Origin: Clostridia bacterium
GTDB lineage: Bacteria; Bacillota; Clostridia; TANB77; UBA1234
Direction of reading: 5' to 3'
Assembly (NCBI GenBank): GCA_900765095.1
Contig: CAAFRB010000012.1
Coordinates: forward strand, 1,199 to 65,198
Length of the DNA: 64,000 bases
Position 1 is the stretch's first letter. Every line of letters begins with the position of its first letter. This document shows, piece by piece, positions 1,128 to 29,901 of this stretch. Made by a program: the position numbers and the translations under genes. Below the pieces are notes generated by a model that worked only from the letters and a program-made list of their open reading frames with translations, was not told where the DNA came from and made no database searches.

Positions 1128-1862
1128 TCACTCCTCTATAATATTGTATTCTGTGTTTGCATCTAAGGCTGTTATAGCATTAAATTGAGTTTGCGTTCCT
1201 ACCCATATTTTAAGCACCTGAATGTTTGTATTTTCTGCGTTTGAAATCTCTCCACCGCCTGTTACATTTAATGTGCCATCTGCTCCAATATTGACGTTCT
1301 CACCAGCTTTTACTCCACCTAGCGTAGTATCACTTGCAACTGGTAATGTATAGTTATTAAGTCCTGCTAATTTTGCTTTTTCTTCCTCTGTATAGTCATT
1401 CGTGCTAAGTCCTTTTCCTTCCACTTTTGATACCTTAGCTTCTATTTCTCCTCTTATTTCTGTATCATCATAAGTTTTGCCATCTTCCCCATCTTTTATC
1501 GTTGTTGTCTTTGTTCCATCTTTATCTGTTATCTCAATAGTTGTTATCTTGCCACTTTTAGACACAGATATTGTTGGACTTATTCCATCAGCACCAGGAC
1601 TGCCCGTATCTCCCTTTTCACCTTGTGGTCCTCGTTCACCAGTTAAACCTTGTAAGCCTCTTTTTCCCTCTGGACCTTGTGGACCAACACTTCCTGTTTC
1701 ACCCTTTGGCCCCTGTGGACCAGCTGGACCAATATCGCCTTTTTCTCCTTGTGGTCCTTGTTTTCCTTCAGGTCCAACGGGACCTTTCGGACCAACATCA
1801 CCAGAATATTTAATTTCCCCATTCACTTCAATTCTTTCGGTTTTTCCATTTATTTCGTTCAT
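1128..1862 (-). CDS. Collagen-like (Gly-X-Y repeat) phage tail fiber protein
   Basis: About 120 aa of uninterrupted GXX repeats (GPKGPVGPEGKQGPQGEKGDIGPAGPQG...) with a globular C-terminus. Confidence 0.8.
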   Translation of the reverse strand: MNEINGKTERIEVNGEIKYSGDVGPKGPVGPEGKQGPQGEKGDIGPAGPQGPKGETGSVGPQGPEGKRGLQGLTGERGPQGEKGDTGSPGADGISPTISVSKSGKITTIEITDKDGTKTTTIKDGEDGKTYDDTEIRGEIEAKVSKVEGKGLSTNDYTEEEKAKLAGLNNYTLPVASDTTLGGVKAGENVNIGADGTLNVTGGGEISNAENTNIQVLKIWVGTQTQFNAITALDANTEYNIIEE

Positions 1863-2167
1863 CTGATACCATCCTTTCCGATCGAGTATTCTTTTTGAAC
1901 TGTCATTTCTGTTCCTGTAATTGTTACTACTCTTACTTCAAGAACAACATCTCCAGATATGTCATACATATCTTCTCTACTAAATTCAAGCTGAACTTTT
2001 TCGCATTCGTTTTGTACAGTATATTCGATTGTTTTTAATTTGGTATACTCTGCATCATCTTCTGTTTTGCTCATAAAACTTGCAGTTATCACGTCTCCTG
2101 CTTGAAACGTATACCCATCAAATGCCACCGTAAATGGAAATGTGTCGCCTCGATAAATTTTTGCCAT
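1859..2167 (-). CDS. Hypothetical phage structural/assembly protein (102 aa)
   Basis: ORF coupled (4-bp overlap) to the collagen-like fiber gene; no recognisable motif. Confidence 0.45.
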   Translation of the reverse strand: MAKIYRGDTFPFTVAFDGYTFQAGDVITASFMSKTEDDAEYTKLKTIEYTVQNECEKVQLEFSREDMYDISGDVVLEVRVVTITGTEMTVQKEYSIGKDGIR

Positions 2168-2218: not shown

Positions 2219-5200
2219 CTAATCAACATTAAATATTCCATACAATATTTTCTTTTGCTGTGCTGTTAAATTATCATCTATAGCTTCATTTATTGCCTTA
2301 ATTTTAGCTTTTTTCTTTGTGCCTGATATAGTTTCACCTTTTGCATTTTTCTTGCCCTCAGCATCTTTCTGGGCAAGCCATGCGTTGTAGTAATCCACCA
2401 TTGGGACATCTTTTAATTCTTCTTGTATTTTTTTAAATTCTTTTGTAGCTTTTGTTGCAATCCATTTAGATTTTGCATGAGTGTTAGCATCTTTAACAAT
2501 TTTATTCACTACTTCAACTTTATCTTCGTTCTCTAAAGTCTTATAAAACTCACTATCAAACAAAGCATGTAATTCTTTTGATACATATTCTCCACTTCGT
2601 TTTTGATATTCTGAGCGTTCATTACTAGAAAGATTTACTTTCTCGCCATCATCGCTTAAATAGTATGGAGCTTGCATTGGAAATATAGTTTTATCTCTTG
2701 TTGCTTCATATAATGCATATAATTCTTTTTGCGTGTCAGTTACGTTTGCTTTACTTATATTTGCAGGATTTAAAAAGACATTAAACACATTATTATCTCC
2801 GCCATAATTTTCAACTTCTTCTCCAAAAGTATTTACCGTTGGGGCTAATGTATTTTTAAGTCCAGGTATTTTTGCTTTCACTTGATTTACAGTTGTCTTT
2901 AATTTGTCTCCGTATTCAAATGTTTGTCTTTTGCTCTTGTCTCCTAATGTAGCAAACTGTGATAAAAAAGTTGGTAAAAATTGAGATGGCATATTCAAAA
3001 CGGCATCGATTAGACCGTCTATTGGTTCATCTGCTTCAAATAGTTCTTTTATTCCTTGTAAAAATGAATTATCAACAACTACCCCAACTGTAGTTCTAAC
3101 TGCATTATATAAAATATCAAACAACTTCTCATTATTTTTACTCATTTTATATGTATCTGCCATTATAGCAAGTGGTGCATTTAATGGATTTGCCCAACTG
3201 TAAGTAAAAGCTTTATCTCCTATTTTTATTGAATATGGTTGTATACCTAAAACATTTTGCTCAAAGTTTCTTACATCTTTATCATCATCTGCAGAACCAG
3301 TTATTGCTCCAGTGTGTGCAAGCGTTCCAGCTATTAAGTATAATATAGAACCTGCTATTGCTTTTGACATACTATTAACGAACTTTTTCTGTTGCATTGC
3401 TGTCATTTCACCTCTACTTATTGCTTTTTTCATATCTGAATAATCAATAATTGATTCTACTAAACCAACTGGGCTATATTCCACAATAGCTTTCGTTAAG
3501 TTAGCTGGTGTTTTAGCAAATGGAATAATTAAATCTCCAAAACCGAATCCACCAATATTTAATTTGTTCATCGCTCTTCTTATACCTAGAACAGCTTCTG
3601 TATATGAGTTATTATCATTCCAAGTTCTAGATAAAGCTTCATTTACCGCTATATCTATCATCTCTGTCGTCGGTGTAGTTACTTTATTTGCTTTCATTTG
3701 TCCTTGCAAAGAATTATTAAATGCTGCCTCATAAAAAGGTCTGTCTCCACCACTCATTACAGCACCTAATAAATTTTCTATACCATTTAATTTATTATTT
3801 ATAGCATTTAATATTTTTGATTTAGTGTTTTCATTAAATGATTTGCCACCAAAATTAAACTCATACTTGCTTCCAGAAGGTTCTGTTCTTATTCCCATTT
3901 TATAATCTTGTACAGCTTCAGTAATACCTTTTTTAAATCCTTTACCTTTTTCTTTTAAATCGGCATAATTTGTTGTTCTTACCCCTGTTTTTTTAGCTAT
4001 CAACTTATCTATTTGTGTTCCAATTATATCAGCTACATCATTTACAGGCATTATAAGAGCATTACCAACCACATTTCTTACTTGCGTTTTAGGATTAAAC
4101 AACATTGCCATTCTTCTAATTGCTTTAATTGTTTGCCCTCTTTCTGGCGGAAGTTTATCATTTACTCTTTTTTCAATTTTAGCAAGTTCTATTTGTTTCT
4201 CTCTTTCTGATGTTGCTTGTTGAGCTTTTTCAACTTGTTCAGTAATAAATTGATTATCTTCTGCGGTAAGCTTAAATTTTTCTTTGTTAGCTTCTACCCA
4301 TTCTCCGGTTTTTCTTTGTGATATTTCTTTAAATACATCGTTTAATTTTCTTTGCTGATAAACCATCATGGCTTCAGGAGTTAATCTTTGAAATATAGAA
4401 AACATTTGAACAGCACGCCCTACTTCAGTTCCCATATCAGCTAATTTTTGAACAACATTTACAGCAGACTCTGTATCTCCCATTTGCTGATATCTCTCTA
4501 TAAGTATTGCTCCAATTGCAACATCTTCAGCTGTGAAGTTTTTAGTTTTAGTTTCCCATTGTTTTATAAGTTTATCTCCTTGTTCATCTAACTTAATTTT
4601 AGCTTTTTCTAGTGTTTGTTCATTTGATTGCCTTTCATAGGTAGTAATATCTATACTATCTTTAACTTCTTGACTTATCACTTTAGACGTTTCTGCATTT
4701 TTAAAAAATTTTCTCTCATATTGTGTATCTTTATCTTTTTTGTGCTTATAATTTACACCTTTTTCATTCCTAATATCTTCTTCCGACATATTAGCTATGT
4801 CTTCTAAAGATTTGATTTTTGATTTTTTATCATTTTCTTCTTTTTCAAACACATGCAAACTCTCGTAAGCTTTCTTAGCTTGCTGTCTATCAAACTCTTG
4901 TAGTTCTTCTAATGTTGGAAAGCCAAATGTTTTTTTAGAATTAGGCATTAAGTCCCAGTTTTTATCTAGGTAAGATTGCCATTTGTTATTTGATTGAGAA
5001 TATTTACTATCTATAACCTTTGCATATTGTCCCTGTGTTGGGTCTATCCATGCAACATCCTTTATATTTACTATTTTTTCATATACTTTACCATTACCAG
5101 AATAACTCTCAGCCTCCATTTTTGATGGACTAACAAATACTCCTTGTTTTATAGGATAAGAGCTATATACTGTTATTTTCCCCGTTTCTAATGCTTTTTT

Positions 5201-8200
5201 TGCTATATCCATAGTATAATCTGGGTCAAATTCTTCATATTCTGCCCATTCGCTATCTTGCAATGTTTCTTCAAGAGTTTTAATATCTTCTATGCTTCTT
5301 ATCCAAGTGTGATAATCGTCATTAACAGGATTATTTTTTTCTATTATTTCTAACTGTTGTTGCTTAAAATTGTTTTCTGGCAAAGAAAAAGAACTCTTAT
5401 TTGAGTTCTCTGCATTGTTTTCTGTATTTTGCATATACTGGTTATTGACAGTGCTGTTTGATGATGGTATACTATTATTAATAGAAGATGTCCCGTTCTT
5501 AGAGTCTACATTTGTAGAAAATCTAATGGGTGATGTCTTCTTTTTTATATTTACAATATCATATAATATTTCGTTATTATTTTTATTTATTCCTGTAACA
5601 ACATCTATTGTATAATCGTTATTTCCTATCTTTACGTCAATATTACTTCTATTAAAGCTTCCAAAACTGTCCTTTCTCTTATGTTTTAAATTTTCATTTT
5701 GAACATTATAAGCATTTTGAACTATTTCATCTATATTATTTGCCATTCGTAACTTATCTTTATATTTTTCATTTTCATTTTTCTTAATATCTTTCGTATA
5801 TTCTGAATTAACATATTCATTTCTACTTTTAGCATTTATCCCTATATTAAAGAAATCCATATCAATTCCATTTGGAAATTTATTTTTAAATGTTTCTTTT
5901 ACAACTTTAATCCACTTATCCTCTGGAACATTATCCAATATATCTTCTTCTATCACAACAAACGGATGATTATTTATATCATATCCAACACTATAATTTT
6001 GACTAGCATTTCCTTTATAAGCTGTATTATATGCTGTTTCAAATTTCTTTTTTAGATCATTCAAGTATTTGTTATCTGCTCTTCTTTCATTAAATGTCCT
6101 GCTTGTTTTTTGCCCATCAAATGCTACGTTTTTAATCCAATTATACATTCTCATAAATACGTTAGGTTTCTTTCCTGCAAGTTCATTTAAAAATTCTTGA
6201 TTGCCTAATGCTTGTGCCGTCATATCGTTTACTGTTTCCATATCCATATTTAAATTAGACATATCTAAGCCATTTGCTTGATAGAAATTTTGATATGTTT
6301 CTGTTATTTTAGCTTTTGCTTCTTCAAATCCATTTGTGCTTTTTGCTCTATTCATTACAAAATCTTGTAATTCTTGATATTGTGGTGTATTTTCTAAATC
6401 ATGCAACATTTCATGTACTGCAACAAATTCATAAGCCCTTGTTGAATTTGGATTTATTTTCATTGTTCTTGTTCCATCAGAATTTTTTATTATCACTCCA
6501 TCTGTTTTTAATGTATTATCCATTTCGACATTTAAACCTGGTGCAATTTTATTTCTATTTTCCACAAATGTTTGTATTTCATTAGTTACTGTAACTTGAC
6601 TGTTCTGTTCATCAGATATACTCATTTGCTGATTGCTTTCCAAATTAGATACATTCTGCACATTGTTTTGAGAAATCTGGTCAGTATTTGATGAATTTTC
6701 GCTAACATTAGTATCCTTATGAAGACTTTCCAATTCTTCTCTTGCTCCTAATACTTCATCTGCAACAGAATTTCTTATCTCTGATATTTCTTGTGGCGTC
6801 AATTGTCTTCCTTGTTCTGTTTCTGCTAATTGAACTGCATTTCGAGTAACTTTATTTATTTGAATTGCAGACGTCGCTCCTTGACTTATTCCAGATGATA
6901 TAAATGCTGATGCCATTTCTTGCATTACATCATCCCAATTCCATTTTTCAGAAAAGTCCAGTTTTCCAAATTTGTTTGCATAATTATCCATTAAATAATT
7001 GCCAGCATAAGAAATAAATTCTTCTGCTGCTTCACCACCACCAGCAACAAGTATCTTAGTTAATTGCTTTTGAAAAGCATTTTCTGCTCTAGCTACAGCT
7101 TTTTTGGCAAACTTGTCCGTTATATCTGTTCCACCTACACCTAGTAAGCCAAATAGTCCCTCCGTAGTTCCCTCTATAGCTCCTCCACCTAATATTCTAA
7201 GTGCCATTTGTAGCTTTTCTTCTCCTGTTGCATTTTCTAATCCGCCTAACTGTTCATCTGCTTTGGCATATGTTTCTGCAACAGCACTTCCCATTCCAGT
7301 AGCAAATGCTGTCGTTGGCATATTTAAAACATGATCACCGAATTTTATTGGTACTTCACCAAATTTACCAAGTGCAGCACCTACTGCCATTTGTCCACCC
7401 GATTGTCCGACACCTTCGGTCGCTGAATCCAATAATTTTCCACTAAATGAATTTGTATCTAATTTATCAGCTGTACTTTCTAATAAATTATGTGTTTTAA
7501 CGAATGGCGTGCCTACTGCTATTCTTTTCCTTAAAGCATTAGCATACTCATCTTGGCCTATTAAATCTGCTACCCCTGCAATTGCAGATGCTCCTGCATT
7601 TGCAATTCCTTCTGATACACTAAATATTCCCTTTGCTATTCTTGTTGGAATTTCTAATGCTGTACTTCCTAAGGTCGTTGCAGAATCACCAAAATTTTCA
7701 AGTGCTGTTGCAGTTATATCTCCAAATTGATACCCATCTTTAAATCTTCTGAGATTATCTTTCATATTTTCTGGTACTTTTAATAATTTTCCTCTATCGC
7801 TAGGCTGTTGCCCCATAGCTCTACCTATTGAACTTTGTATTACATTTGTGCTATCAACAATGTTTTTACCATTATTTAATTGCTTTCTATACGTTTTAGA
7901 TAATAAATCTGCCGTTCCTTGTTTTAATCCTTTTGATTTTAGTTCTTCTCTTTTAAGTTCTCTGTCCTTCATGTTTTCTATAAACAATTTCTTATCTTGC
8001 TGTGAAAAATCATCACCAGCATTTGGCTGTGTAACCAATTCTCCAACTCCAGCATCTTTTACTTTGCTGCTATTTACGATTTTCGGTAAAGATTGTGCAA
8101 ATTTTCTATCTGTTGGTGCAATAGTATTTATTGCTTTTGTTTGATACAACATCTTATTACTTTGATTTTCTTTCGTTGAATTTGCAGTAGTGTTATTTAC

Positions 8201-8338
8201 TCTGGCTTTATTTTCATCAATACTTACTGCATCTAGTTTTGTTGTTTTATTCCTGATTTCATCCCAGTTTAATCGTGATTTACTCGAACCTTGGGTAGTG
8301 GTTCCTGTACTTCTTATTTTTCTCCAATCCAAAGGCAT
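2219..8338 (-). CDS. Giant virion-associated protein (2039 aa), tape-measure/ejection-protein-like, with HEXXH zincin-like motif
   Basis: Single 6.1-kb ORF in the structural operon. It has Gly/Ala-rich segments (GIANAGASAIAGVADLIGQ, LGGGAIEGTTEGLFGLLGVGGTD), a VAVHEMLHDLE HEXXH motif, long Asn/Gln-rich low-complexity linkers and a hydrophobic C-terminal region. Confidence 0.7.
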   Translation of the reverse strand: MPLDWRKIRSTGTTTQGSSKSRLNWDEIRNKTTKLDAVSIDENKARVNNTTANSTKENQSNKMLYQTKAINTIAPTDRKFAQSLPKIVNSSKVKDAGVGELVTQPNAGDDFSQQDKKLFIENMKDRELKREELKSKGLKQGTADLLSKTYRKQLNNGKNIVDSTNVIQSSIGRAMGQQPSDRGKLLKVPENMKDNLRRFKDGYQFGDITATALENFGDSATTLGSTALEIPTRIAKGIFSVSEGIANAGASAIAGVADLIGQDEYANALRKRIAVGTPFVKTHNLLESTADKLDTNSFSGKLLDSATEGVGQSGGQMAVGAALGKFGEVPIKFGDHVLNMPTTAFATGMGSAVAETYAKADEQLGGLENATGEEKLQMALRILGGGAIEGTTEGLFGLLGVGGTDITDKFAKKAVARAENAFQKQLTKILVAGGGEAAEEFISYAGNYLMDNYANKFGKLDFSEKWNWDDVMQEMASAFISSGISQGATSAIQINKVTRNAVQLAETEQGRQLTPQEISEIRNSVADEVLGAREELESLHKDTNVSENSSNTDQISQNNVQNVSNLESNQQMSISDEQNSQVTVTNEIQTFVENRNKIAPGLNVEMDNTLKTDGVIIKNSDGTRTMKINPNSTRAYEFVAVHEMLHDLENTPQYQELQDFVMNRAKSTNGFEEAKAKITETYQNFYQANGLDMSNLNMDMETVNDMTAQALGNQEFLNELAGKKPNVFMRMYNWIKNVAFDGQKTSRTFNERRADNKYLNDLKKKFETAYNTAYKGNASQNYSVGYDINNHPFVVIEEDILDNVPEDKWIKVVKETFKNKFPNGIDMDFFNIGINAKSRNEYVNSEYTKDIKKNENEKYKDKLRMANNIDEIVQNAYNVQNENLKHKRKDSFGSFNRSNIDVKIGNNDYTIDVVTGINKNNNEILYDIVNIKKKTSPIRFSTNVDSKNGTSSINNSIPSSNSTVNNQYMQNTENNAENSNKSSFSLPENNFKQQQLEIIEKNNPVNDDYHTWIRSIEDIKTLEETLQDSEWAEYEEFDPDYTMDIAKKALETGKITVYSSYPIKQGVFVSPSKMEAESYSGNGKVYEKIVNIKDVAWIDPTQGQYAKVIDSKYSQSNNKWQSYLDKNWDLMPNSKKTFGFPTLEELQEFDRQQAKKAYESLHVFEKEENDKKSKIKSLEDIANMSEEDIRNEKGVNYKHKKDKDTQYERKFFKNAETSKVISQEVKDSIDITTYERQSNEQTLEKAKIKLDEQGDKLIKQWETKTKNFTAEDVAIGAILIERYQQMGDTESAVNVVQKLADMGTEVGRAVQMFSIFQRLTPEAMMVYQQRKLNDVFKEISQRKTGEWVEANKEKFKLTAEDNQFITEQVEKAQQATSEREKQIELAKIEKRVNDKLPPERGQTIKAIRRMAMLFNPKTQVRNVVGNALIMPVNDVADIIGTQIDKLIAKKTGVRTTNYADLKEKGKGFKKGITEAVQDYKMGIRTEPSGSKYEFNFGGKSFNENTKSKILNAINNKLNGIENLLGAVMSGGDRPFYEAAFNNSLQGQMKANKVTTPTTEMIDIAVNEALSRTWNDNNSYTEAVLGIRRAMNKLNIGGFGFGDLIIPFAKTPANLTKAIVEYSPVGLVESIIDYSDMKKAISRGEMTAMQQKKFVNSMSKAIAGSILYLIAGTLAHTGAITGSADDDKDVRNFEQNVLGIQPYSIKIGDKAFTYSWANPLNAPLAIMADTYKMSKNNEKLFDILYNAVRTTVGVVVDNSFLQGIKELFEADEPIDGLIDAVLNMPSQFLPTFLSQFATLGDKSKRQTFEYGDKLKTTVNQVKAKIPGLKNTLAPTVNTFGEEVENYGGDNNVFNVFLNPANISKANVTDTQKELYALYEATRDKTIFPMQAPYYLSDDGEKVNLSSNERSEYQKRSGEYVSKELHALFDSEFYKTLENEDKVEVVNKIVKDANTHAKSKWIATKATKEFKKIQEELKDVPMVDYYNAWLAQKDAEGKKNAKGETISGTKKKAKIKAINEAIDDNLTAQQKKILYGIFNVD

Positions 8339-8343
8339 ATCTT

Positions 8344-9714
8344 CTACCCCCTTAACTGATTTTGCACGTTTCTAGGGATTAGAGCTGCATTCTGTTCTTT
8401 TTTTGTTTTTGACGAATCTACAGTATTTTGATTTTTAACATCTGCATAAGGTCCAATTCCATATAAAGCCATTAAGGACAAAGCATCATTGTCACTCATT
8501 CTTCCACTTTCATTTTCATTTTGAATATAATCCAATAATTTTTCGTCATTTGTTAAATAATTATTATCAATTATATCTCTATAAGTTGATAGTTTTGTCG
8601 TGTCCGCATTTCTTGTAGATTGACTATATGGTTTATTTATATTGTACTGTGTTTGCGCAGTATCATTAGCTAATTGTTGTCTTTTTACCCAACTTTCAAA
8701 TTCTTGCTGTCTTGCTTCTTTTTCTTTTTCTGCTTGTTGCATTGCCAAGTAGTTGTTGTAATATTGATTTGCTTGTTCTACAGTCCAACCTAAAGCAGCT
8801 GCGTTATTATAATTTATATTTCCAGCTTGAATGCTTGCTAAAGCATTACTTGGCGTATTTGCATTTGCATAGTTTGTATTGACTTTATTACCTCTCAATG
8901 CTTCCAACTGCAATACTTCTAAACTATTAGGGCTATATCCTTGAGCTAACAAGTTATTTATTTGAGCTTGATAATCATTTGAATATTGTCCTAACGCTTG
9001 TTGTTGCAATTGCTGTACCATTTGTCTTTGTTGCTGATTATAATTTAGTAAATTATTAAAATATTCACTATCAATTGCAGAATTTGCATTTGCTAAATTT
9101 GCCACATAATCATTTTCTACAGCTGTTCTTTGGTTTGCTATATCTCTATATGCGTTTGCCTCAGCCGTGCCTATATTGCCTAAAGTATTTTGAAGTGATG
9201 ATTGTCTATTTATTTCACCTTGTGCCGATGCTCCACTATTTGTTAATCCTCTATTTGCTAAATACTCAGCAAAAGACCTAGCACCTTGTTGGCTTGAAGC
9301 CGATGCTAGGTTTCTTTGATTTTGATACATAGGTTTTATTGTTTGTTCTTGCACATTTAAATTATCTAATGCTTTTTGCTTTGCTTGTTTTAAAGCATTA
9401 ATTTGAGATTTCCTTTTTGCTTCAGTTAGCCTCTTTAAATCATCTTCATAACTTCCATAGTTTGTTGATGTTCCTACCTTCCCGCTTGCTTGTGCCTTAC
9501 TTGTACCAGTTCCTAACCAATCACCATCGTTTAAACTAATATTTTGGCTTCCATCAGTGCCTCCAGAATATCCATATCCTGCTCTTACACTTTCCGCCTC
9601 AGCGTGTGCAGATTGCATTCCAGCAGTATCACCTTTTGCTTGTGCCTCAGCATATTTCTTTTTAGCTTGATTTATTTTTTCATTATCTGCATCATTTAAA
9701 TTTATATCTGCCAT
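8344..9714 (-). CDS. Gln/Asn-rich phage structural (internal virion/ejection-like) protein, 456 aa
   Basis: Low-complexity Q/N/A-rich sequence (QQLQQQALGQY, NQRNLASASSQQGARS); sits between the tail genes and the giant protein. Confidence 0.5.
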   Translation of the reverse strand: MADINLNDADNEKINQAKKKYAEAQAKGDTAGMQSAHAEAESVRAGYGYSGGTDGSQNISLNDGDWLGTGTSKAQASGKVGTSTNYGSYEDDLKRLTEAKRKSQINALKQAKQKALDNLNVQEQTIKPMYQNQRNLASASSQQGARSFAEYLANRGLTNSGASAQGEINRQSSLQNTLGNIGTAEANAYRDIANQRTAVENDYVANLANANSAIDSEYFNNLLNYNQQQRQMVQQLQQQALGQYSNDYQAQINNLLAQGYSPNSLEVLQLEALRGNKVNTNYANANTPSNALASIQAGNINYNNAAALGWTVEQANQYYNNYLAMQQAEKEKEARQQEFESWVKRQQLANDTAQTQYNINKPYSQSTRNADTTKLSTYRDIIDNNYLTNDEKLLDYIQNENESGRMSDNDALSLMALYGIGPYADVKNQNTVDSSKTKKEQNAALIPRNVQNQLRG

Positions 9715-9724
9715 TTTACGCCTC

Positions 9725-10846
9725 CTATTCTAATTCAAAATAAGAACCATTGTATACTAATGTATATCTTTTGTTTGCCTCTAATTTGGGTATAGCTTTA
9801 TATCCTAAATTATCTAATTGTAATTTATTCGTATAGCCTTTATCATAATTGTTTGGTGTAATTAAGCATAATCTTTGTCCATCAATATATTCTGTAAATC
9901 CTAATGATAAGTCTAGTTTCCCATTGTCTAATGTAGCAACTTTCTTCCCTTCAAAATTTATTTTTTGGATATATATACTAGAACTCTTCGTGCCTCGTAT
10001 TTTTATATATTTGTAATATTGTTCATCTGTTACATTTATTTTCTTTTCCGAATAGCTACTATCAGGATATATTAACCCTAAATCCACCCAATCCACACTA
10101 TTCAAACTTCCTTCAGCTATTAAATGTGAATCACTTCCACCTTTTGAATATATTTTTATATTTTTCACTTTTATATATTCTGGTAATTCAACTATTACAT
10201 AGTGTGATGATGATCCAAAAGCGACCTCATTATTATCGCTAAATCTATTATTATATGAGTTTGAAAACAATAGATAAGCTTCAGTAGATGGTACGCTCGC
10301 AACGCTTCTAACACTTGCTGTTATATTATAGCCTTGTTCACTGTTACTTTGTAATGTTGGAACGGCATTTGTAGTTTCTACAATTGACGAATTTAAAGTA
10401 TATGTAGGAATATGATATTTTGCACCAGCAAATAAAGTAGATATTTTTTGCCCTCCCAACATTTCTGCATTTAAGTTTTGTTGAATTGTACCATCTTTTT
10501 CAGCAATTATATTAGCAAATGTCGAAGCTAATTTGGCTTTTGTTATACTTCCATCAGGTATTACTCCTAATACAGAATTTTGTATTTCCTCCATTAAATA
10601 AGCTAATTTAGCTTGTACATTTGATTCAGAAGAATCACTATCACTCAACGGCAATGCACCTACCGAACTTCCGCCTGTTGGTACTTCAATTTCTTTTATT
10701 AATCTATTTATACCAGCTTTCAACTTATTAGCAGGTTCATCAAATTTAGCTTTTAATTGCTCTGCTGATAATCCATCATCTATATTAGGTTCATCGCTTA
10801 AACTTTGATGAACATTTAAGTCGTCTGTTATTTTCGTAAAAGACAT
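9725..10846 (-). CDS. Phage structural protein (tail/baseplate-like), 373 aa
   Basis: Position in structural operon; no recognisable motif. Confidence 0.45.
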   Translation of the reverse strand: MSFTKITDDLNVHQSLSDEPNIDDGLSAEQLKAKFDEPANKLKAGINRLIKEIEVPTGGSSVGALPLSDSDSSESNVQAKLAYLMEEIQNSVLGVIPDGSITKAKLASTFANIIAEKDGTIQQNLNAEMLGGQKISTLFAGAKYHIPTYTLNSSIVETTNAVPTLQSNSEQGYNITASVRSVASVPSTEAYLLFSNSYNNRFSDNNEVAFGSSSHYVIVELPEYIKVKNIKIYSKGGSDSHLIAEGSLNSVDWVDLGLIYPDSSYSEKKINVTDEQYYKYIKIRGTKSSSIYIQKINFEGKKVATLDNGKLDLSLGFTEYIDGQRLCLITPNNYDKGYTNKLQLDNLGYKAIPKLEANKRYTLVYNGSYFELE

Positions 10847-10847
10847 A

Positions 10848-12575
10848 TTATTTTACCTCCCCACCATAAACTTTTTTAATTGCAATAGAATTAACTGTAA
10901 CTTTTTCATCTGATTTTTCATTTTTTAAAATTAGTTTTAAAAATGCAAATTTTTTAGCTTTTAATTTTATTCTAAAAGGTTTTACACTTCTTTGCGTATT
11001 GTATGTAAAATTGTCATAATTCCAATACCTATAATCAATACATCTATTTTCTATTTCTTTTTCATCAGAGCCAGCATCTCTATCGCTCACATAATTTACT
11101 ACTAAAGATGTTTTAGAATGAGGTTTTAGCGTTACCCACAAAATTCTCATTGTTTTTCTTCTTTCCTCTATTCCGAAATCATAATAACCACTTTGCCACT
11201 CCGCAGATATTCCTTCACCATTATACGTAGTTAGATTTTTATCAAATTCCATTATTTCGCCATTTTCTGTGCTCATGTATATAATTCCTTGGTATGAAAT
11301 TAAACTTGTAATTTTGCTAGGAATATTAAGCAAATAAAAGCACCCATTTTGATAATTGTATACCATTATTTCATTTTCAATTGCTAACCAATATTCTTTT
11401 TCTTCTTGATAATCTAAAGTTATAGATTTAGTCAAATCATGCTTGTTTAACCATTCTTGTATTTTGGTAGATATTATCTCGGCATTTCGCTCATCTTTAG
11501 TATTTGTCGATGTCCACTGGACGATTGAAGTATCGATTGTTGTTACATAGTTGTCCAAAACCTGTCCTTGATTATATGGTCTTGCTCCATGTGATTTGTT
11601 AAGAGGATATACTGGAAATGCTATAATGTTTTCTTCTGTGTTATCTGTAATTTGTTCATAAGTCGAATAATAAGTAGAATCTTCTTTATTTATAATCATT
11701 CTATCATATTGTCTTTGTATGTCTGTTACAGCCGTATTTGAGCTTCCTATGTCCATAAAATTATTACCAGGGAAATATGTTACATTAGGTATTCCATTTC
11801 CTAAGTCACTAAAATATATTCTATTTTTTGCATCTGCATTGCCATATAAAAAAACTCTTGTATCATCTGCAAGTCCATAAGTTTGAAAGTAATGATTTTT
11901 ATATACTAATTCTCTTTGCCCTGTTCCTTTTGTCCATTGTACTTCAATAGTATCCACTCCCTGAGTTGGAGCTGTTGAAAAAGTAATTGTGCCTTTTGTC
12001 AAATCTTTTGTTACTGTTGTTTCTACTCCATCAACTTTTACACTGTCTATGCTAGTCAAATTATTTTCTACTAATACAAATGTTTTCTCTGTTCCATCTG
12101 GGCTAAATGTTTGCCTCTTCTTGCCTGTTAGAACATTTATAGGCTCGTAATCCGTTCCAACTCCATTAGGTGTTGTAGCCACTTTGACTAATGGAATATA
12201 GCCTTCAACATCTTTAAATATTGTTCCATCCCATTCTTTATATTCATGACCATTTATAAAGTATAGTTTTTGGTTAAATTCAAATATTCTCGTAATATCG
12301 TCTGTTAATGAACCTAGTTCTGTATCTTCGTTATAAACTTTTCCACCACATACATATACGTGAACGATATTTTCTCCAAGCTTTCCTTTCCATTGTGCTC
12401 TTATAATGCCATCTTGTTTGAAGACTTCTTTATAACCATACATTTTATCTAATTTATTATCCTTTGTAATACGAAAATTAACCATCTTTCCACTTTCACC
12501 AAGCTTAAGTTGAGTGTCTCCTGTTTCGTTCATATTCAAACCTAGAAAGCTATTAATTGAAGTATTATCTGACAT
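10848..12575 (-). CDS. Phage structural protein (tail/adaptor-like), 575 aa
   Basis: Position in structural operon, tightly packed with neighbours. Confidence 0.45.
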   Translation of the reverse strand: MSDNTSINSFLGLNMNETGDTQLKLGESGKMVNFRITKDNKLDKMYGYKEVFKQDGIIRAQWKGKLGENIVHVYVCGGKVYNEDTELGSLTDDITRIFEFNQKLYFINGHEYKEWDGTIFKDVEGYIPLVKVATTPNGVGTDYEPINVLTGKKRQTFSPDGTEKTFVLVENNLTSIDSVKVDGVETTVTKDLTKGTITFSTAPTQGVDTIEVQWTKGTGQRELVYKNHYFQTYGLADDTRVFLYGNADAKNRIYFSDLGNGIPNVTYFPGNNFMDIGSSNTAVTDIQRQYDRMIINKEDSTYYSTYEQITDNTEENIIAFPVYPLNKSHGARPYNQGQVLDNYVTTIDTSIVQWTSTNTKDERNAEIISTKIQEWLNKHDLTKSITLDYQEEKEYWLAIENEIMVYNYQNGCFYLLNIPSKITSLISYQGIIYMSTENGEIMEFDKNLTTYNGEGISAEWQSGYYDFGIEERRKTMRILWVTLKPHSKTSLVVNYVSDRDAGSDEKEIENRCIDYRYWNYDNFTYNTQRSVKPFRIKLKAKKFAFLKLILKNEKSDEKVTVNSIAIKKVYGGEVK

Positions 12576-12577
12576 TT

Positions 12578-12997
12578 TTAATCACCCGCCCTAAATAAAG
12601 CACCATATACATCTTCTCTTGTTTCTTGTTTTGCTTTCTTTCTATATTGTTCTAAATTGTTATTCATTAATGAAGATGCTAAGGAACTAAAATAATTCGA
12701 AAGTGCAGTATCTTCTGTTAATAATAATCTTGCACATAATTCATAAACAACAATTGTTGCACAAATTGCATCATCGAGTTCAACCTCAGACTCCATCGTT
12801 TGTATTTCGTCTAAGAATCCTATCCCCAACTTCATACTAATATCATTTTGAATTGAAGTTAATATTCCAGGTGTTCTCGCTCTATAATCCTTAGTTGAAG
12901 TATTATCCATTTCAGGCTTTTCACCTTTTACCAGTTTTGCATCTTTCATCTCGTCAATGTGCGATAACGCAAATTTATATATTAATTCTGCTTTCAA
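12578..12997 (-). CDS. Putative head completion / head-tail adaptor protein, 139 aa
   Basis: Small gene immediately downstream of the capsid gene. Confidence 0.4.
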   Translation of the reverse strand: MKAELIYKFALSHIDEMKDAKLVKGEKPEMDNTSTKDYRARTPGILTSIQNDISMKLGIGFLDEIQTMESEVELDDAICATIVVYELCARLLLTEDTALSNYFSSLASSLMNNNLEQYRKKAKQETREDVYGALFRAGD

Positions 12998-13056: not shown

Positions 13057-14178
13057 TTATTTTTTTGCTAATGTACCGCCACCACTGATAAACACTTTTG
13101 CATCTTTAATCGCAACAATCATATAATGAGTATTTGTCGAGCCAGCAATATCAGTATCGTCTTTTGGTAAAGCTGTGTATCCTGTTAAAGAACCTTCTGC
13201 TGTACCTTCAGCTGGTGCTGTAATTGCAGAAGTATCAAATTTATATTTATATGTTAATGTTCCTTCATCACATAGATTTGGTCTAACAACTTTAAATCTT
13301 GTAGAACCAGTTGTTGTTTTAGAAGCTAAAGATTGTGATGTCAAACCTACACCGCTTGCTAAAATATATACTCCTTTTGGATTAGCATCTGATAAGAATA
13401 AATCATAAATAATTCTTCCTTCAACTAACCAACCATTGATTCCTGGAGGGTTATCATGAATTTTATAATCAGATAACGTTTTTGGTGTTGCACATACCTT
13501 AGGATGAATAAATAACATGTCTACACCTGCTGGAAAATATTTAGATGGTGCTTTTATAATTGCAACATCGTCAACATCTCCTATAGAACCATTAATTGAC
13601 ATTTTCTTACCAGCATCAACATATTTAGTAAATTCATCACATCTTTTTAATAGATTGTATTTACCTGGTTTTACATAGCATAATCTTCCCTTTGTTGGAA
13701 TAGAATCTTCGTCCATCATTTCCATTACTTCGCAGAACTTTTCATAAATATTCGTTTTTGTTAAAGAACCAGAAGTAATTACATTTCCTCTTAACTTAGC
13801 TAAAGTAGAAGCAACGTGAATGTTGTATCTATCTCTATTAGGAATACTTACATTCTTTAATTCTGCTGCTAATCTCTTACCTGCTTCTTTAATCATCATT
13901 TGCTCATTTCTATTTCCTCTATCAATAGTAAATGTAAATGATTTATCTTGAGTCATAGTTTTAGTATGAGTTTCATCTCCTAATTCTTCTGGAGTACCAT
14001 ATCTATTAGTACCACTTCTTGTATAATCATTTTCCTCAGCATCATCAATTTGATATACCACAACACTTTTTACACCCGTGATATCATAATCTGATCCACC
14101 CATTTTTCCTGTTAATTCTTCTTGTGTGAATTTTTCATCCACTTTCTTTTGATATTTCGTAGCTAAATTTACTGCCAT
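13057..14178 (-). CDS. Major capsid protein (putative), 373 aa
   Basis: Follows the scaffold gene in the canonical terS-terL-portal-scaffold-capsid order; size typical of an HK97-fold capsid protein. Confidence 0.6.
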   Translation of the reverse strand: MAVNLATKYQKKVDEKFTQEELTGKMGGSDYDITGVKSVVVYQIDDAEENDYTRSGTNRYGTPEELGDETHTKTMTQDKSFTFTIDRGNRNEQMMIKEAGKRLAAELKNVSIPNRDRYNIHVASTLAKLRGNVITSGSLTKTNIYEKFCEVMEMMDEDSIPTKGRLCYVKPGKYNLLKRCDEFTKYVDAGKKMSINGSIGDVDDVAIIKAPSKYFPAGVDMLFIHPKVCATPKTLSDYKIHDNPPGINGWLVEGRIIYDLFLSDANPKGVYILASGVGLTSQSLASKTTTGSTRFKVVRPNLCDEGTLTYKYKFDTSAITAPAEGTAEGSLTGYTALPKDDTDIAGSTNTHYMIVAIKDAKVFISGGGTLAKK

Positions 14179-14195
14179 TTAAAATTCCTCCTTTT

Positions 14196-15026
14196 TTAAA
14201 TAGAATCAAAACCGTCTAAAAAAGCATCCTTGCTCTGTTGTTCTGTCGAACTTCCATTTGAAGTCGGAGATACAACTGAGTTAGATGCATTGTTTTGGTT
14301 TTGTTCCATTTGTTTTATTTTTTCTTTTAAAATTTTGTTTTCATATTCTGCATATGCTGACTTTAAATTAGAATTTTTGGCATTTTCAAACACCTCTTTT
14401 GGTATCTTGTCGACTTCAATACCTGGATAAGCATTTAAAAATTCCTCATATTCTTTTTCTTTTTGAAGTTCTGCTTTTCTAGCCTCTTCCTTTTCATTTA
14501 ATTCTGCTTGCTGCCTTTTCAATGATTCTCTTAACGCTCTTGTTTCTATTACTTCTCTAGCAATATCTTCTGGAACACCATTTGACATCATAGATTGTAT
14601 TGCATTTTCGTTTTGAGCCTTTATTTGCTCTTCTTCATATTTCTTAACTTTTTCAATATATTGCTCTGGTGTCAAATTTGCCTTTTTAGCCATATCCGAG
14701 ACATAGTTCATTACTACATTTTCGGATTTTTCTTGCTTAGCTTTCAAATTGTCATAATTTAATCCTTTTTGATAAGTGTTAATTAAATCATCAATCTTAT
14801 CAATTTTTACATTTTCGCCATTATACTTGATTCCTTTATTGTTTAAGTAATCTAATAATTTCTTTTCTTCTGTTCCTCCTAGTTGCTCATTTGTAGGTAC
14901 AGTTTCCTCACTGGTTTGTTCAGTTCCTGTTCCTGCTTCTTCAACATTTTCTTGTTCTTCTGAAGTTGGTATATCTTCAAAATCACTTTCATCTAATTCA
15001 AAAATGTCTTCTTCATTTTCATTCAT
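14196..15026 (-). CDS. Scaffolding protein (acidic coiled-coil), 276 aa
   Basis: Highly acidic N-terminus and Glu/Lys-rich helical repeats; sits between portal and capsid. Confidence 0.6.
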   Translation of the reverse strand: MNENEEDIFELDESDFEDIPTSEEQENVEEAGTGTEQTSEETVPTNEQLGGTEEKKLLDYLNNKGIKYNGENVKIDKIDDLINTYQKGLNYDNLKAKQEKSENVVMNYVSDMAKKANLTPEQYIEKVKKYEEEQIKAQNENAIQSMMSNGVPEDIAREVIETRALRESLKRQQAELNEKEEARKAELQKEKEYEEFLNAYPGIEVDKIPKEVFENAKNSNLKSAYAEYENKILKEKIKQMEQNQNNASNSVVSPTSNGSSTEQQSKDAFLDGFDSI

Positions 15027-15123
15027 ATTAACCTTCTTTCTCCGACTATGGTTGGTCGGTGTGCCTTATATCTCCTTGGTTTATTTGATACTTGGCTAAA
15101 ATTTATATAAAAAAGACATCAGG

Positions 15124-15291
15124 TTATTTGCCTAATGCCTTTTCTATTTCACTCTGTTTTGCTTTTAGTTTTTTCTTTGCCTCTTCTAATCTTTGTTTAT
15201 CTTTATATATTTTTTGATATTCGATAAGAGTTCTAGCATCATCTTCTGCTCTCCACTCTTTTTCTTCTTTACTTATTGTACTTTTACTCAT
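15124..15291 (-). CDS. Small K/E-rich coiled-coil protein (55 aa), translationally coupled to portal stop (ATGA overlap)
   Basis: ORF MSKSTISKEEKEWRAEDDARTLIEYQKIYKDKQRLEEAKKKLKAKQSEIEKALGK, found by manual translation; it is below the ORF-track size cutoff. Confidence 0.35.
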   Translation of the reverse strand: MSKSTISKEEKEWRAEDDARTLIEYQKIYKDKQRLEEAKKKLKAKQSEIEKALGK

Positions 15292-16988
15292 GCAACTTTT
15301 CCCTCCATCATATCTAATATTGTTTTTTCCATCTGTCCTGGTGGCAAAGCTTTTATTTGTTCTTGTTGTTCTGGTGGTAAGCTTTCTAAAAACTGTGCCA
15401 TTTGCTCATACTGGTTCTGCTGTGCTTGCATGTCTTGTTGCATTTGAATTTGTTCTTTTAATTTTGTAAGTAGTTCTGCTTTCTTTGGAATTAGTTCGTT
15501 TGGTATTCTTTCTAAGTAATCAATAAATTCAATTCTATCTTGCTGCAATAAATTGTCTAATGTTTGTACTGCAGATATTTCTGAATAATACGATGTTTCT
15601 CCAACATCTATACTTGTTTTTAAATCCATACCTTGCAATTGATTAAAATTAAACATAACTAATTGCCTTGTACCATCTTCAGTCGTCATTAGAACTGGTC
15701 TACTACCGTATTTAACCGACATCATATCAATTAGTATCATGACTTCTTGTTCTATTAAGTCGTATAAATTATCTTTTATATTCGCAAGTGGTACTGCAGT
15801 ACTCTTTTGAACTGCAATAATTGCTGAGGTATTCTTTGGATCTATCTGACCAAGTGAGGCATCAGATACGCCTAAGCACTCTTTTGTATATTGAAATGCT
15901 AAATCAATAACTTTTATAATATAATCACTCATATTAGCAGGTTCTAAATATCCTGCAACATCTTTTATACTTCTGCCACTTTGTGCTAATCCTTTTAACC
16001 CAATAGCTGAGCCAATTTCATTATTCCAGCTAGCAAGCATATCTTTATCATACACAGCTGTCGGAAATGCTGTCATCATCTGATGATAGATAATCATTGC
16101 AAACATCTTATTGATAGCAATCTGATTAGGACATATACCTTCAACTTCACCACGACCATGGAATGTATTTTTCTGCTTGTACCAATTTGAAAATGCAACA
16201 GGATATCTTGTTAAGCCTGTATTAACATTTTCAAATATAATGGCATCCTTTGTGCATTTAGTAACATACACCTTATTGTCTTTCTTTTCATAAAAATAGA
16301 TATACAATGCTTTTCCCTCATCGTCTCCTTCAATGTCTATTTCCGTCTTTGCAAAGTCACTTACTTGGAAATCTGTATCATAATCTTCTTTAATATTTTC
16401 ATTTCTTGATTTTGCTTCTTTCTTTAGATTTTTAACAGTATCTCTACCAACAATAATAATCCATGGTTGTTTTTCCACATCTCTTATATTAGCGTTGCCA
16501 AAACCCACATTAGTTGCATCTATTGTTTCAATCTCGATTTCTCCCAATAAATCCTTATAACTTCTATAAGGTTTCTTATTAGGATTAAATATAGTATGAA
16601 AGCACATATCACCTGTTACTGCGCCATCTAATAAAACATCTTTTGTTTTTATTTTAATGTTACTCTTTTCAAAGATGTTCTTTATTTCTGCATTTAAGAA
16701 ATCGCTATTATCTAACTCCCCTTCTGGCTTTGATGTATATTCAAGTGGTTCAACATTTACCGCTATATCTGATGTAGTTAAACTCGCAATTTTAAACTCT
16801 ATTATTCTTTTAATAATATTAAAGACTGGGTGAGGTAGCTTTTGGTCACCCTCTAATCCAGTCCATTGGTCTCCATTATAAAAATCATTCCATACTTTTA
16901 CGCTTTCATAGTAATTTTTATTAGGTCTAAAAGCACTATTATATGCAACCATGCTCTCATACTTTTTCCAATAATCTTTAGCTTCCAT
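15288..16988 (-). CDS. Portal protein, 566 aa
   Basis: Large gene immediately downstream of terminase large subunit; acidic Q-rich C-terminus typical of portals. Confidence 0.7.
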   Translation of the reverse strand: MEAKDYWKKYESMVAYNSAFRPNKNYYESVKVWNDFYNGDQWTGLEGDQKLPHPVFNIIKRIIEFKIASLTTSDIAVNVEPLEYTSKPEGELDNSDFLNAEIKNIFEKSNIKIKTKDVLLDGAVTGDMCFHTIFNPNKKPYRSYKDLLGEIEIETIDATNVGFGNANIRDVEKQPWIIIVGRDTVKNLKKEAKSRNENIKEDYDTDFQVSDFAKTEIDIEGDDEGKALYIYFYEKKDNKVYVTKCTKDAIIFENVNTGLTRYPVAFSNWYKQKNTFHGRGEVEGICPNQIAINKMFAMIIYHQMMTAFPTAVYDKDMLASWNNEIGSAIGLKGLAQSGRSIKDVAGYLEPANMSDYIIKVIDLAFQYTKECLGVSDASLGQIDPKNTSAIIAVQKSTAVPLANIKDNLYDLIEQEVMILIDMMSVKYGSRPVLMTTEDGTRQLVMFNFNQLQGMDLKTSIDVGETSYYSEISAVQTLDNLLQQDRIEFIDYLERIPNELIPKKAELLTKLKEQIQMQQDMQAQQNQYEQMAQFLESLPPEQQEQIKALPPGQMEKTILDMMEGKVA

Positions 16989-16993
16989 CTATC

Positions 16994-17194
16994 TCACTTC
17001 CTTTTACTTTGAATTGCATCATCTATTGAATAATTCATCAACTTGTCAAATTCTTCTTTTCTCTCTTTTTGTTTTTTCACTTCTTCTGTTTCAAAATAAG
17101 TCTCTTTTTTAGGTTCTACCTTTTCAACCTTTATAGTTATAAAATCCTTAAAAATCAATATTAATAATAATAAAATAATCAAATAATCTATCAT
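16994..17194 (-). CDS. Small membrane-anchored hypothetical protein (66 aa)
   Basis: N-terminal TM segment ILLLLILIF; sits between terL and portal. Confidence 0.35.
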   Translation of the reverse strand: MIDYLIILLLLILIFKDFITIKVEKVEPKKETYFETEEVKKQKERKEEFDKLMNYSIDDAIQSKRK

Positions 17195-20138: not shown

Positions 20139-21350
20139 CTAATTTTTAGCTTTAAAATTATATATTGGTCTTATTATTTTTTTGATTTCTACTGTATCTT
20201 GTATATTATCTATTATTTCTTGCATAGGCTTGTAAACAAACGGAGCTTCATCTATTGTTTCTATTGCAACTGATGTTGTATATATGCCTTCCATAGATTT
20301 TTTAAATTCTTCTAACGTAAATGTTTCTTTTGCTTTTATTCTTGACATTATTCTTCCTGCTCCATGTGGTGCTGAGAAATTCCAATCTTCATTTCCTTTA
20401 CCTATTGCAATAATACTTCCATCTTTCATATTTATTGGTATTAATACTTTTTCTCCTTTTCTAGCTGATATTGCTCCTTTACGAACTATATTATCTTTAA
20501 ATGAAATATAATTATGAACTGTTTCAAACATTATCCACTCAAATTTTTCATATTCTTCTTTATTAAAATAATTTTTTATAATTTCATGTGCTATATTAAC
20601 TCTGTTGCAGCACGCGTATTCTTGACATATTTGCATATCGTGTAAATACATTTCCCTATATTTGCCTTCTAAATAACACAAATTTTTTGGCAAATTGGGT
20701 TTATTATTTTTATATTCATTTTCTACATTTTTTAATGCACTTTGTATTTCTGACTTCTTTCCTTGCTCTTTATATGTTTTTATTATTTCTTCTTTTCTTT
20801 GATACATTTTTTCCTTATCAGAGCATAATTCTATAGCTAAATTTTGATAATACTCTGCAACCTGCTTTCCCATATTTCTTGAACCTGTATGTATTACTAA
20901 ATACTTATTATTTTCATCATCAATATCTATTTCTATAAAGTGATTTCCACCGCCTAATGTTCCTATTGATCTATTAAACTTTTCTGTTTCTTCAAGCTTA
21001 CTTAAACAATACAAATCATTTATTTTATCAAAATCACATAATTTATGTTCTCTTATATTTCTTCCAGCAGGTATAAATTTATTTACTATACTGTCTAATC
21101 TTTCCAAATTCAAATCAATATTTCCTAGTTCTATACATAGCATTCCACAGCCTATATCTACACCAACGATATTAGGTATAACTTTATTTCCTAAATCTGC
21201 TGTAAAACCTATTACACATCCCTTTCCCGCGTGAACATCAGGCATTATCCTTACTTTACAGTCTTTAAAAGATTCTTGCTCTAATAATTCAGATATCTGT
21301 TCTACAGCCTCATCTTCAATATTGTTAGTAAATATCTTTAAATCTTTCAT
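20139..21350 (-). CDS. rtcB: RtcB-family RNA 3'-phosphate ligase (phage-encoded)
   Basis: RtcB metal-binding motifs RIMPDVHAGKGCVIGF, VGVDIGCGM and HTGSRNMGKQVAEYY are in the expected order. The 403-aa length is consistent with compact RtcB proteins. Confidence 0.75.
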   Translation of the reverse strand: MKDLKIFTNNIEDEAVEQISELLEQESFKDCKVRIMPDVHAGKGCVIGFTADLGNKVIPNIVGVDIGCGMLCIELGNIDLNLERLDSIVNKFIPAGRNIREHKLCDFDKINDLYCLSKLEETEKFNRSIGTLGGGNHFIEIDIDDENNKYLVIHTGSRNMGKQVAEYYQNLAIELCSDKEKMYQRKEEIIKTYKEQGKKSEIQSALKNVENEYKNNKPNLPKNLCYLEGKYREMYLHDMQICQEYACCNRVNIAHEIIKNYFNKEEYEKFEWIMFETVHNYISFKDNIVRKGAISARKGEKVLIPINMKDGSIIAIGKGNEDWNFSAPHGAGRIMSRIKAKETFTLEEFKKSMEGIYTTSVAIETIDEAPFVYKPMQEIIDNIQDTVEIKKIIRPIYNFKAKN

Positions 21351-26821: not shown

Positions 26822-26828
26822 TTCAAAA

Positions 26829-29747: not shown

Positions 29748-29883
29748 GTTAACTTGATAATCATAGTTTAATTAACTTTAAGTTATTTGTCAATATATTT
29801 TTGCAAAATAATATTAACTTTCTGTTAAAGCGTTCTCGCTGTAAGAAAAAATTATTTACAGAGTTAACTTATTGTTATATAAT
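29748..29883. promoter_or_regulatory. Divergent switch region: four TTAACTT repeats and a plus-strand promoter TTTACA-17-TATAAT (29855-29883) for the CI-like repressor; TTGACA (complement of 29788-29793) for the minus-strand early operon
   Basis: Sequence reading of the -35/-10 hexamers with 17-bp spacing and repeated TTAACTT elements. Confidence 0.55.
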
Positions 29884-29901
29884 GTTAATCGAGGTGAAAA
29901 A

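Follow-up and report, generated by a model that had tools for sequence, protein, structure and literature searches.

A giant protein of a temperate prophage from gut Clostridia combines an internal virion protein-like chassis with exchangeable effector-type domains

The giant gene and its module map

The stretch of DNA investigated here, termed the window throughout, comprises 64,000 nucleotides of contig CAAFRB010000012.1 from a Clostridia bacterium and starts within a prophage. A giant gene on the minus strand (2219..8338) encodes 2039 amino acids plus stop codon in a single unbroken open reading frame (ORF), whose ATG start lies 5 nucleotides after the stop codon of an upstream ORF of 456 amino acids. 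We infer that its product is an ejection protein packaged in the virions of a temperate, podovirus-like prophage whose host is a gut Clostridia bacterium. A sequence-only reading of the same DNA had described a single frame of this length, and this was confirmed. The exact 2039-residue sequence has been recorded from at least four contigs, among them GenBank DAO67296.1 ("hypothetical protein"), and its cluster at 90% holds eight more proteins of 2039 residues. Therefore, the ORF is not the product of a frameshift or of an assembly artefact.

Searching Pfam, NCBIfam and PADLOC with the full-length protein yielded nothing useful. Sequence and profile searches of the PDB with the whole protein, the full-length alignment, module C and module E gave chance-level matches only. 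The protein was divided into modules by comparison with 326 relatives and by segment-wise BLAST, with the following result (residue numbers refer to the 2039-residue protein).

7964..8338, minus strand: module A, residues 1-125, basic and of low complexity, N/S/T-rich at residues 43-74, kept in the closest relatives only
6734..7963, minus strand: module B, residues 126-535, conserved Gly/Ala-rich N module
6554..6733, minus strand: N/S/Q-rich linker, residues 536-595
6014..6544, minus strand: module C, residues 599-775, zincin-like metallopeptidase (MPTase) module
6401..6415, minus strand: HEMLH motif, residues 642-646, with the conserved glutamate E701 at 6236-6238
5534..6001, minus strand: module D, residues 780-935, LPD3 domain (PF18798)
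5366..5533, minus strand: N/S-rich linker, residues 936-991
5009..5365, minus strand: module E, residues 992-1110, widespread alpha/beta domain matching part of phrog_13543
4667..5008, minus strand: residues 1111-1224, junction KYSQ (1112-1115) followed by a K/E-rich linker
2642..4666, minus strand: module F1, residues 1225-1899, all-helical chassis
3302..3358, minus strand: small-residue hydrophobic helix IAGSILYLIAGTLAHTGAI, residues 1661-1679, followed by GSADDDKD and PYSIKIGD
2222..2641, minus strand: module F2, residues 1900-2039, C-terminal tail, best-predicted part of the C-terminal model

All four peptides quoted in the sequence-only reading are present in the protein, namely GIANAGASAIAGVADLIGQ (around residues 244-262), LGGGAIEGTTEGLFGLLGVGG (around 382-402), VAVHEMLHDLE (639-649) and SKAIAGSILYLIAGTLAHTGAITG (around 1658-1681). 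The long N/Q-rich spacers it had pointed out are real as well; N/S/Q/T-rich stretches were located at residues 43-74, 535-595 and 935-997. The description of the glycine-rich segments as membrane-like was not supported, as their hydropathy is too low: the best Kyte-Doolittle mean over 19 residues in the Gly/Ala-rich stretches of the N module was 1.22. The hydrophobic stretches proposed for the C-terminal region were reduced to one, residues 1661-1679, which alone reaches a value of 1.51 and is thus borderline.

The C-terminal chassis

The constant C-terminal part of the protein, formed by F1 and F2, is referred to as the chassis. Judged by sequence comparison, it is homologous to the internal virion proteins found at the position of gp16 in marine T7-like podoviruses. 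A tblastn search of isolated phages with the whole protein found a marine podovirus as well as Desulfovibrio phage ProddE, in the latter case its "internal virion protein D", and a profile of the chassis matched the ProddE protein with an E-value of 5.5e-18. The C-terminal half of the ProddE protein in turn matched Syn5 gp45, P60, P-SSP7 gp16 and the IVP-D (internal virion protein D) of pelagiphages and roseophages. Aligning 44 non-redundant chassis sequences with ProddE, ctgrD200, Syn5 gp45 and P-SSP7 gp16 by hhalign yielded a probability of 99% (E-value 7e-18) over 518 columns. The region common with ProddE includes the small-residue hydrophobic helix and the PYSIKIGD motif. The structural model of the chassis (AF2, DSSP) is almost wholly helical and of low confidence. 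In Foldseek searches this model matched internal virion proteins from S-CBP2, S-CBP3 and S-RIP1 (E-values 2e-7 to 9e-6). As the mean predicted local distance difference test (pLDDT) value was 55, we treat these matches as sequence-assisted homology and not as evidence for a fold.

In 29 family members the hydrophobic helix corresponding to residues 1661-1679 showed a mean Kyte-Doolittle value of 1.44 (range 1.14-1.89). The comparable segment of T7 gp16 (residues 1137-1155) reaches 1.44.

The abundance of the chassis was determined by scanning 1.84 billion representative proteins, with clusters defined at 50% identity. At least 19,621 clusters carry it, 7,283 of them at an E-value of 1e-30 or better. 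In all of the best 150 matches the chassis was C-terminal, in proteins of 816-3,237 amino acids; among the clusters as a whole, nearly all had it as the C-terminal part of a protein of 1,200-3,200 amino acids. When previously found proteins were excluded, the best 144 representatives had a median length of 2,204 amino acids. Consequently, the earlier statement that a version of 2000 residues in a small temperate phage is unusual was not supported. Within these 144 proteins module B was found in 82, the peptidase module C in 89, ART-PolyVal in 63, module D (LPD3) in 11 and module E in 8.

F2, the last approximately 140 residues, is shared with giant proteins built on another scaffold, the LPD38-type chassis. 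Outside these residues no relation between the LPD38-type chassis and that of the window protein was detectable. Module B occurs in proteins with LPD38-type chassis, too. The occurrence of both parts with two chassis suggests that B and F2 are lineage-specific parts which may dock partner virion proteins.

A loop resembling an EF-hand was noticed in F2 around residues 1985-2005 and in the relatives P0022 and P0029. It is canonical in some relatives (P0022: DKDEDGETIKGTE) and degenerate in the window protein (DAEGKKNAKGETISGT). Several relatives in BFVD are labelled "EF-hand domain-containing protein".

The zincin-like module

The HEXXH motif had been taken in the sequence-only reading as a hint for a metallopeptidase. 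This was supported by a conserved module which carries the zincin signature and, in the structural model, the predicted zincin core topology. HExxH occurs once in the giant protein, compared to a chance expectation of 0.006 (there are only 13 histidines in 2039 residues). In 18 diverse relatives with 17-40% identity to the window protein, H642, E643, H646 and E701 were the sole invariant columns. HExxH was retained in all distinct relatives examined and in 86 of the 89 representatives carrying the module. The AF2 model of residues 590-1130 had a mean pLDDT of 73, with values of 80-90 within module C. It places strands at segment positions 13-17, 25-29 and 35-39, a helix bearing HEMLH at 47-59 and more helices thereafter. 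This topology matches the zincin core, a sheet of three strands followed by the HExxH helix and a second helix (PMC5512222). The weak Pfam matches of several relatives of module C included DUF6782 (5e-5), M48, M78 and Tox-MPTase2, and Foldseek gave a weak match to IrrE (0.022). No match of module C to a known peptidoglycan-peptidase family was obtained.

Modules B, D and E

In every case (57 of 57), module B stood on the N-terminal side of the peptidase module. It gave no family match, its hydropathy is too low for a membrane span, and comparison with T7 gp13-16 and the ProddE/ctgrD200 internal proteins yielded no match. A homologue search seeded with module B returned two proteins only.

The LPD3 domain was identified by scanning residues 780-940 alone, with 32.5 bits (cutoff 27) and an E-value of 1.1e-7. 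It was absent from the Pfam scan of the full-length protein (E-values up to 1). For this reason, long proteins rich in low-complexity sequence should be scanned by segment.

Module E was predicted by AF2 with a pLDDT above 90. Dozens of phage proteins of shorter length contain it as well (50-69% identity), and there it is accompanied by ART-PolyVal, LPD3 or PBECR3 domains or placed at the ends of portal proteins. It had no Pfam or PDB match. Its similarity to ART-PolyVal is weak, with a Pfam E-value of 0.081 over 34 residues and an hhalign probability of 36% over 43 columns. Assigning module E as an ADP-ribosyltransferase of the R-S-ExE type (WIR, YSS, EAE) was considered and dropped, because these motifs are wrongly spaced and the relatives do not conserve EAE.

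Cassette exchange and the junction motif

The 326 relatives carry ART-PolyVal, LPD3, LPD23, SprT-like, PBECR5, MuF_C, LPD38, RadC and ParB_N domains. In relatives sharing the flanks, LPD23 is paired with SprT-like, MuF_C with LPD38 and ParB_N with RadC. Relatives with 85-92% protein identity in the flanks exchange the middle part of the protein for ART-PolyVal (P0002), LPD23 with a SprT-like peptidase (P0003, P0004) or LPD3 with ART (P0010). The alternative cassettes include nuclease domains, and more alternatives were found in distant relatives. At the DNA level, the flank identity of 86-92% breaks at codons 772-777 and resumes at codon 1109 (ART-bearing relative) or 1171.

Short junctions of the form [KRQ]YS[ILVMQ] are located at the breakpoints or close to them, in the window protein NYSV (781-784) and KYSQ (1112-1115); a related QYMQ occurs at 967-970. 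The extended consensus often reads DIRYSLS[DE] or KYSL[ST]D. The motif is enriched in proteins with the peptidase module. Per 1000 residues of cargo region, 0.93 motifs were counted with the module present and 0.26 with the module absent (Mann-Whitney p = 8e-10), compared to 0.10-0.13 after shuffling. Excluding the copies beside the peptidase module, the values were 0.71 versus 0.26 (p = 1e-7). A motif followed the end of the ART domain in 40 of 82 cases with the peptidase module and in 2 of 14 without it (Fisher p = 0.014); for a motif before the start of the domain the counts were 37 of 82 and 1 of 14 (Fisher p = 0.005). We are aware of the fact that all these counts and p-values ignore shared ancestry. 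The model places both copies, at 781-784 and 1112-1115, in short strands at domain edges, so that a purely structural role of the motif is possible.

We tentatively propose, as a possibility with the odds rather against it, that [KRQ]YS[ILVMQ] is the recognition or cleavage site of the zincin acting in cis. The protein would then be a self-processing polyprotein which frees its effectors after injection, and the same sites would double as recombination joints.

Structural operon of the prophage

The giant gene is part of the late operon, located after terminase, portal and capsid genes and before the gene of a collagen-like fibre. The same order was found in related prophages, which come from metagenome-assembled genomes of gut "Clostridia bacterium". 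The structural genes are the following.

1128-1862, minus strand: collagen-like tail fibre, 244 amino acids, collagen triple-helix repeat (PF01391) and Phage_tail_C tip
1859-2167, minus strand: ORF of 102 amino acids, directly downstream of the giant gene
8344..12997, minus strand: four ORFs of the structural operon (456, 373, 575 and 139 amino acids) between giant gene and capsid gene
13057-14178, minus strand: major capsid protein
14196-15026, minus strand: putative scaffold
15288-16988, minus strand: P22-type portal (PF16510, 2.7e-23)
17194-18843, minus strand: large terminase

Family scans assigned none of the four neighbouring ORFs to a family, and comparing neighbouring ORFs with T7 gp13-16 and the ProddE and ctgrD200 internal proteins gave no match. 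Along its whole length, the 575-residue protein is 30% identical to a virion structural protein of Page (genus Pagevirus), a podophage of Bacillus megaterium, and the 456-residue protein had no match in the phage collection. Related prophages extend several kb beyond the fibre gene, where a receptor-binding-type protein and a lysis cassette are encoded. The window start cuts the prophage of interest. The giant gene had been estimated to take up about 18% of the prophage. This is correct when only the part in the window is counted; given the extent of the related prophages, the true share is nearer 15%.

Comparison with known systems

On every feature tested the giant protein conforms to the polyvalent proteins which Iyer, Burroughs, Anand, de Souza and Aravind described in 2017 for phages and conjugative elements (PMC5512222), and it belongs to this known class rather than being unusual. 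As in these proteins, effector-type domains unrelated to one another are joined in one giant polypeptide, in which a zincin-like MPTase forms the hub. The family contains LPD domains, ART, PBECR or SprT domains appear as alternatives in orthologues, shuffling is rapid, and the gene lies among virion genes of a phage with portal and terminase. The differences are that the window protein carries no MuF, N4-type RNA polymerase or SNF2-methylase module, that its chassis (full-length scan) and module B are not covered by Pfam models including the LPD models of the relatives, and that module E is unmodelled.

The protein also fits the concept of cargo-bearing IVP-D put forward by Hardies et al. in 2016. 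Homologues of IVP-D are found in most podoviruses and "variably host" lysozyme and cytoplasm-destined domains, for example in N4 gp50 and gp60 of Pseudomonas phage H66 (PMC4819975). In these two proteins, as in the window protein, a large helical C-terminal ejection module is fused to domains acting in the cytoplasm, and the gene stands at the end of the podovirus structural operon. The cargo differs, with peptidase, LPD3 and a domain without assignment in the window protein and polymerase or methylase in N4 gp50 and H66 gp60. The marine T7-like internal virion proteins (Syn5 gp45, P-SSP7 gp16, P60, pelagiphage and roseophage IVP-D and the ProddE protein) share about 500 residues with the window chassis by homology, including the WRY..ML.NP.TH.RN region, the PF.KTP.N motif, the hydrophobic helix and PYS.K.GD. 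They differ in their length of 1,100-1,400 amino acids, in belonging to lytic phages of Gram-negative or cyanobacterial hosts, and in being without modules B to E.

The precedent from virion proteomics is gp47 of the Stx phage phi24B, a polyvalent protein of 2811 amino acids which is abundant in virions (bioRxiv 10.64898/2026.04.10.717836). Like the window protein it is a giant polyvalent protein with metallopeptidase in a temperate podovirus, and it was proposed to be encapsidated and ejected. It differs in carrying LPD5, LPD1, LPD38 and MuF-C; that the LPD38-type chassis shares only the last approximately 140 residues with the window protein was judged from the relatives P0018 and P0019 rather than from gp47. 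The nearest cultured analogues are the giant ORFs of Pagevirus. In Page, gp20 (1679 amino acids, "hypothetical protein") ends the structural module as does the giant gene in the window, and Pagevirus phages and the window prophage have in common a Gram-positive host and a podovirus-type portal. The Page protein is of the LPD38 type and matched the relative P0018, and no phage of the Page group was among the matches of the window protein in the phage collection.

Proposed role and alternative explanations

Taking these data together, it is quite probable that the giant protein is packaged in the capsid, ejected through the tail, helps to provide a path for the DNA and carries its middle domains into the cell. 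F1 and F2, which are approximately 800 C-terminal residues, probably together with module B, would represent the constant part which places the protein in the capsid beside the portal. On infection it would exit by way of the tail channel, and the chassis might help to form or extend a DNA conduit across wall and membrane in the way of internal virion proteins of the gp16 class, with the conserved helix 1661-1679 as candidate membrane-interacting element. The cargo of modules C, D and E (zincin-like, LPD3 and alpha/beta domain) would reach the host along with the DNA. There, the candidate peptidase would most likely cut its own polyprotein, possibly at the [KRQ]YS[ILVMQ] junctions, or alternatively host proteins. 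The cargo cassette would be replaced by recombination at the junctions between phages that are otherwise nearly identical, which is what an arms race with host defences would lead one to expect. The second option offered in the sequence-only reading, a polyvalent effector protein, here carried in the virion and injected, is the one supported by the evidence.

Several points weigh against this interpretation. The giant protein and its close relatives are known from sequence and prediction alone. The model of the chassis is poor, and as a membrane span the helix 1661-1679 is a borderline case. Neither the chassis nor the set of marine IVP-D proteins showed similarity to T7 gp16 (hmmsearch E-values 0.9-1.0; hhalign 1%, with single-sequence T7 templates), and no similarity of the chassis to the C-terminal part of N4 gp50 was detectable. 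The tie to the ejection proteins studied mechanistically consequently rests on gene position, synteny-based annotation and the published remote-homology work of Hardies et al.; several of the marine IVP-D/gp16 annotations were themselves assigned "by synteny and size". As the host is probably monoderm, the periplasmic tunnel model of T7 is not literally transferable.

The HExxH module might instead be a cell wall-degrading enzyme which cuts peptidoglycan cross-links, with the protein acting mainly as an envelope-breaching device; this was the first option of the sequence-only reading and is the main alternative for module C. Internal virion proteins often bear muralytic domains, such as the N-terminus of T7 gp16 (PMC4819975, PMC8954989), a wall role was suggested for the metallopeptidase of gp47 by the authors of the phi24B study (bioRxiv 10.64898/2026.04.10.717836), a thick Gram-positive wall must be crossed, and scans of the giant protein showed no other lytic domain. 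The zincins matched weakly by the relatives (DUF6782, M48, M78, Tox-MPTase2) are, however, protein-cleaving or regulatory ones, and such modules also occur in proteins of conjugative elements, where no wall is digested (Iyer et al., PMC5512222). Since module C co-occurs with the motif flanking the cargo, self-processing fits better than wall digestion, and we consider a wall enzyme unlikely. Less probable still is a protein made late without being packaged, whose function, for example that of an assembly factor or anti-defence protein, would be exerted in the cell that produces it. Packaging of the window protein is deduced from comparison, which leaves room for this explanation; nevertheless, the homologues are annotated as internal virion proteins, a polyvalent giant protein was detected in the virions of phi24B, and effector delivery at entry is the rationale of the whole polyvalent class.

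A similarly low probability is given to a polymorphic toxin of the MuF type, directed with its immunity gene against competing bacteria instead of serving infection. The cargo (ART, nucleases, peptidases) and the swapping of cassettes resemble polymorphic toxins, and fusion with MuF_C or portal domains is seen in several short cargo relatives. Pfam scans of the giant protein, however, revealed no MuF domain, and its constant part is a homologue of internal virion proteins. The 102-residue protein encoded downstream is 97-98% identical in relatives with ART or SprT-like cassettes; hence, it is not a cassette-matched immunity gene. A long tape-measure protein of a siphovirus-type tail with unrecognised tube genes, in line with the tape-measure likeness of the Gly/Ala-rich stretches in the sequence-only reading, finds some resonance in the large size, the helical C-terminal half, the Gly/Ala-rich stretches and the four adjoining ORFs without family assignment. 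This explanation is nonetheless practically negligible. The portal is of the P22 type, and no neighbouring gene resembles one for a tail tube, Dit, Tal or a frameshifted pair of chaperones: the preceding ORFs of 373 and 456 amino acids do not constitute a small frameshifted chaperone pair, and the following ones of 102 and 244 amino acids (the latter the collagen-like fibre) are not Dit/Tal. Pfam, PHROGs and NCBIfam gave no tape-measure match, globular enzyme-type domains fill the middle of the protein, the 575-residue neighbour of this protein matches the podovirus Page, and the gp16-position proteins of T7-like podoviruses are homologues of its C-terminal half.

Further features of the prophage

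Outside of the late operon the following features were identified in the window.

20139-21350, minus strand: RtcB-type RNA ligase (PF01139, 1.8e-60), between packaging and replication genes
25507-28185, minus strand: recombination module with metallo-beta-lactamase-fold protein (25507-26142), RecT (26132-26926) and DUF1351 (27349-28185)
29872-30495, plus strand: LexA/CI-like repressor (helix-turn-helix and Peptidase_S24), lysogeny end
33085-34203, plus strand: tyrosine integrase, lysogeny end of the prophage
34403-36754: host U32 peptidase gene, next after the integrase
47716-47953, plus strand: host tRNA cluster (Lys-TTT, Glu-TTC, Thr-TGT)

The RtcB ligase may serve the repair of tRNAs cut by host anticodon nucleases. 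The tRNA cluster is about 13 kb from the integrase and does not adjoin the attachment site; the opposite end of the prophage lies beyond the window start. In comparison to the related prophages L004 and L006, the head and packaging half (13057-18843) showed only about 69% DNA identity, while the half with tail, ejection and fibre genes reached 81-97%. Thus, the structural operon itself is mosaic. The terminase ORF is longer in the window prophage (549 amino acids) than in L004 and L006 (461 amino acids). The gene after the fibre is the most variable among relatives (682 versus 471 amino acids) and presumably encodes a receptor-binding protein. In L006, a small gene just after the lysis genes (21074-21271) has a match to the Acb2/Tad1 hairpin, an anti-CBASS/Thoeris sponge family; the matching part of the window prophage falls outside the window.

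Significance

The basic picture is already present in the literature. The remaining interest lies in the annotation gap, the cassette series and the hypothesis on the junction motif. A very common gut phage protein is still deposited as "hypothetical protein", and Pfam, PHROGs and NCBIfam fail to detect its chassis, N module and module E. With a single chassis profile, tens of thousands of phage genes would be annotated as scaffolds of ejection proteins, and the N-terminal halves of the encoded proteins would be flagged as candidate injected effectors. Near-identical prophages with swapped cassettes represent a natural series for testing the effects of cargo against the defences of Clostridia. 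The junction motif offers a concrete and testable idea of the way in which polyvalent proteins are divided into functional pieces. If cleavage at the junctions is true, module E would belong to a large family of injected effectors that has so far lacked annotation, and the chassis of approximately 800 residues, with its at least 19,621 clusters, would be an unmodelled family.

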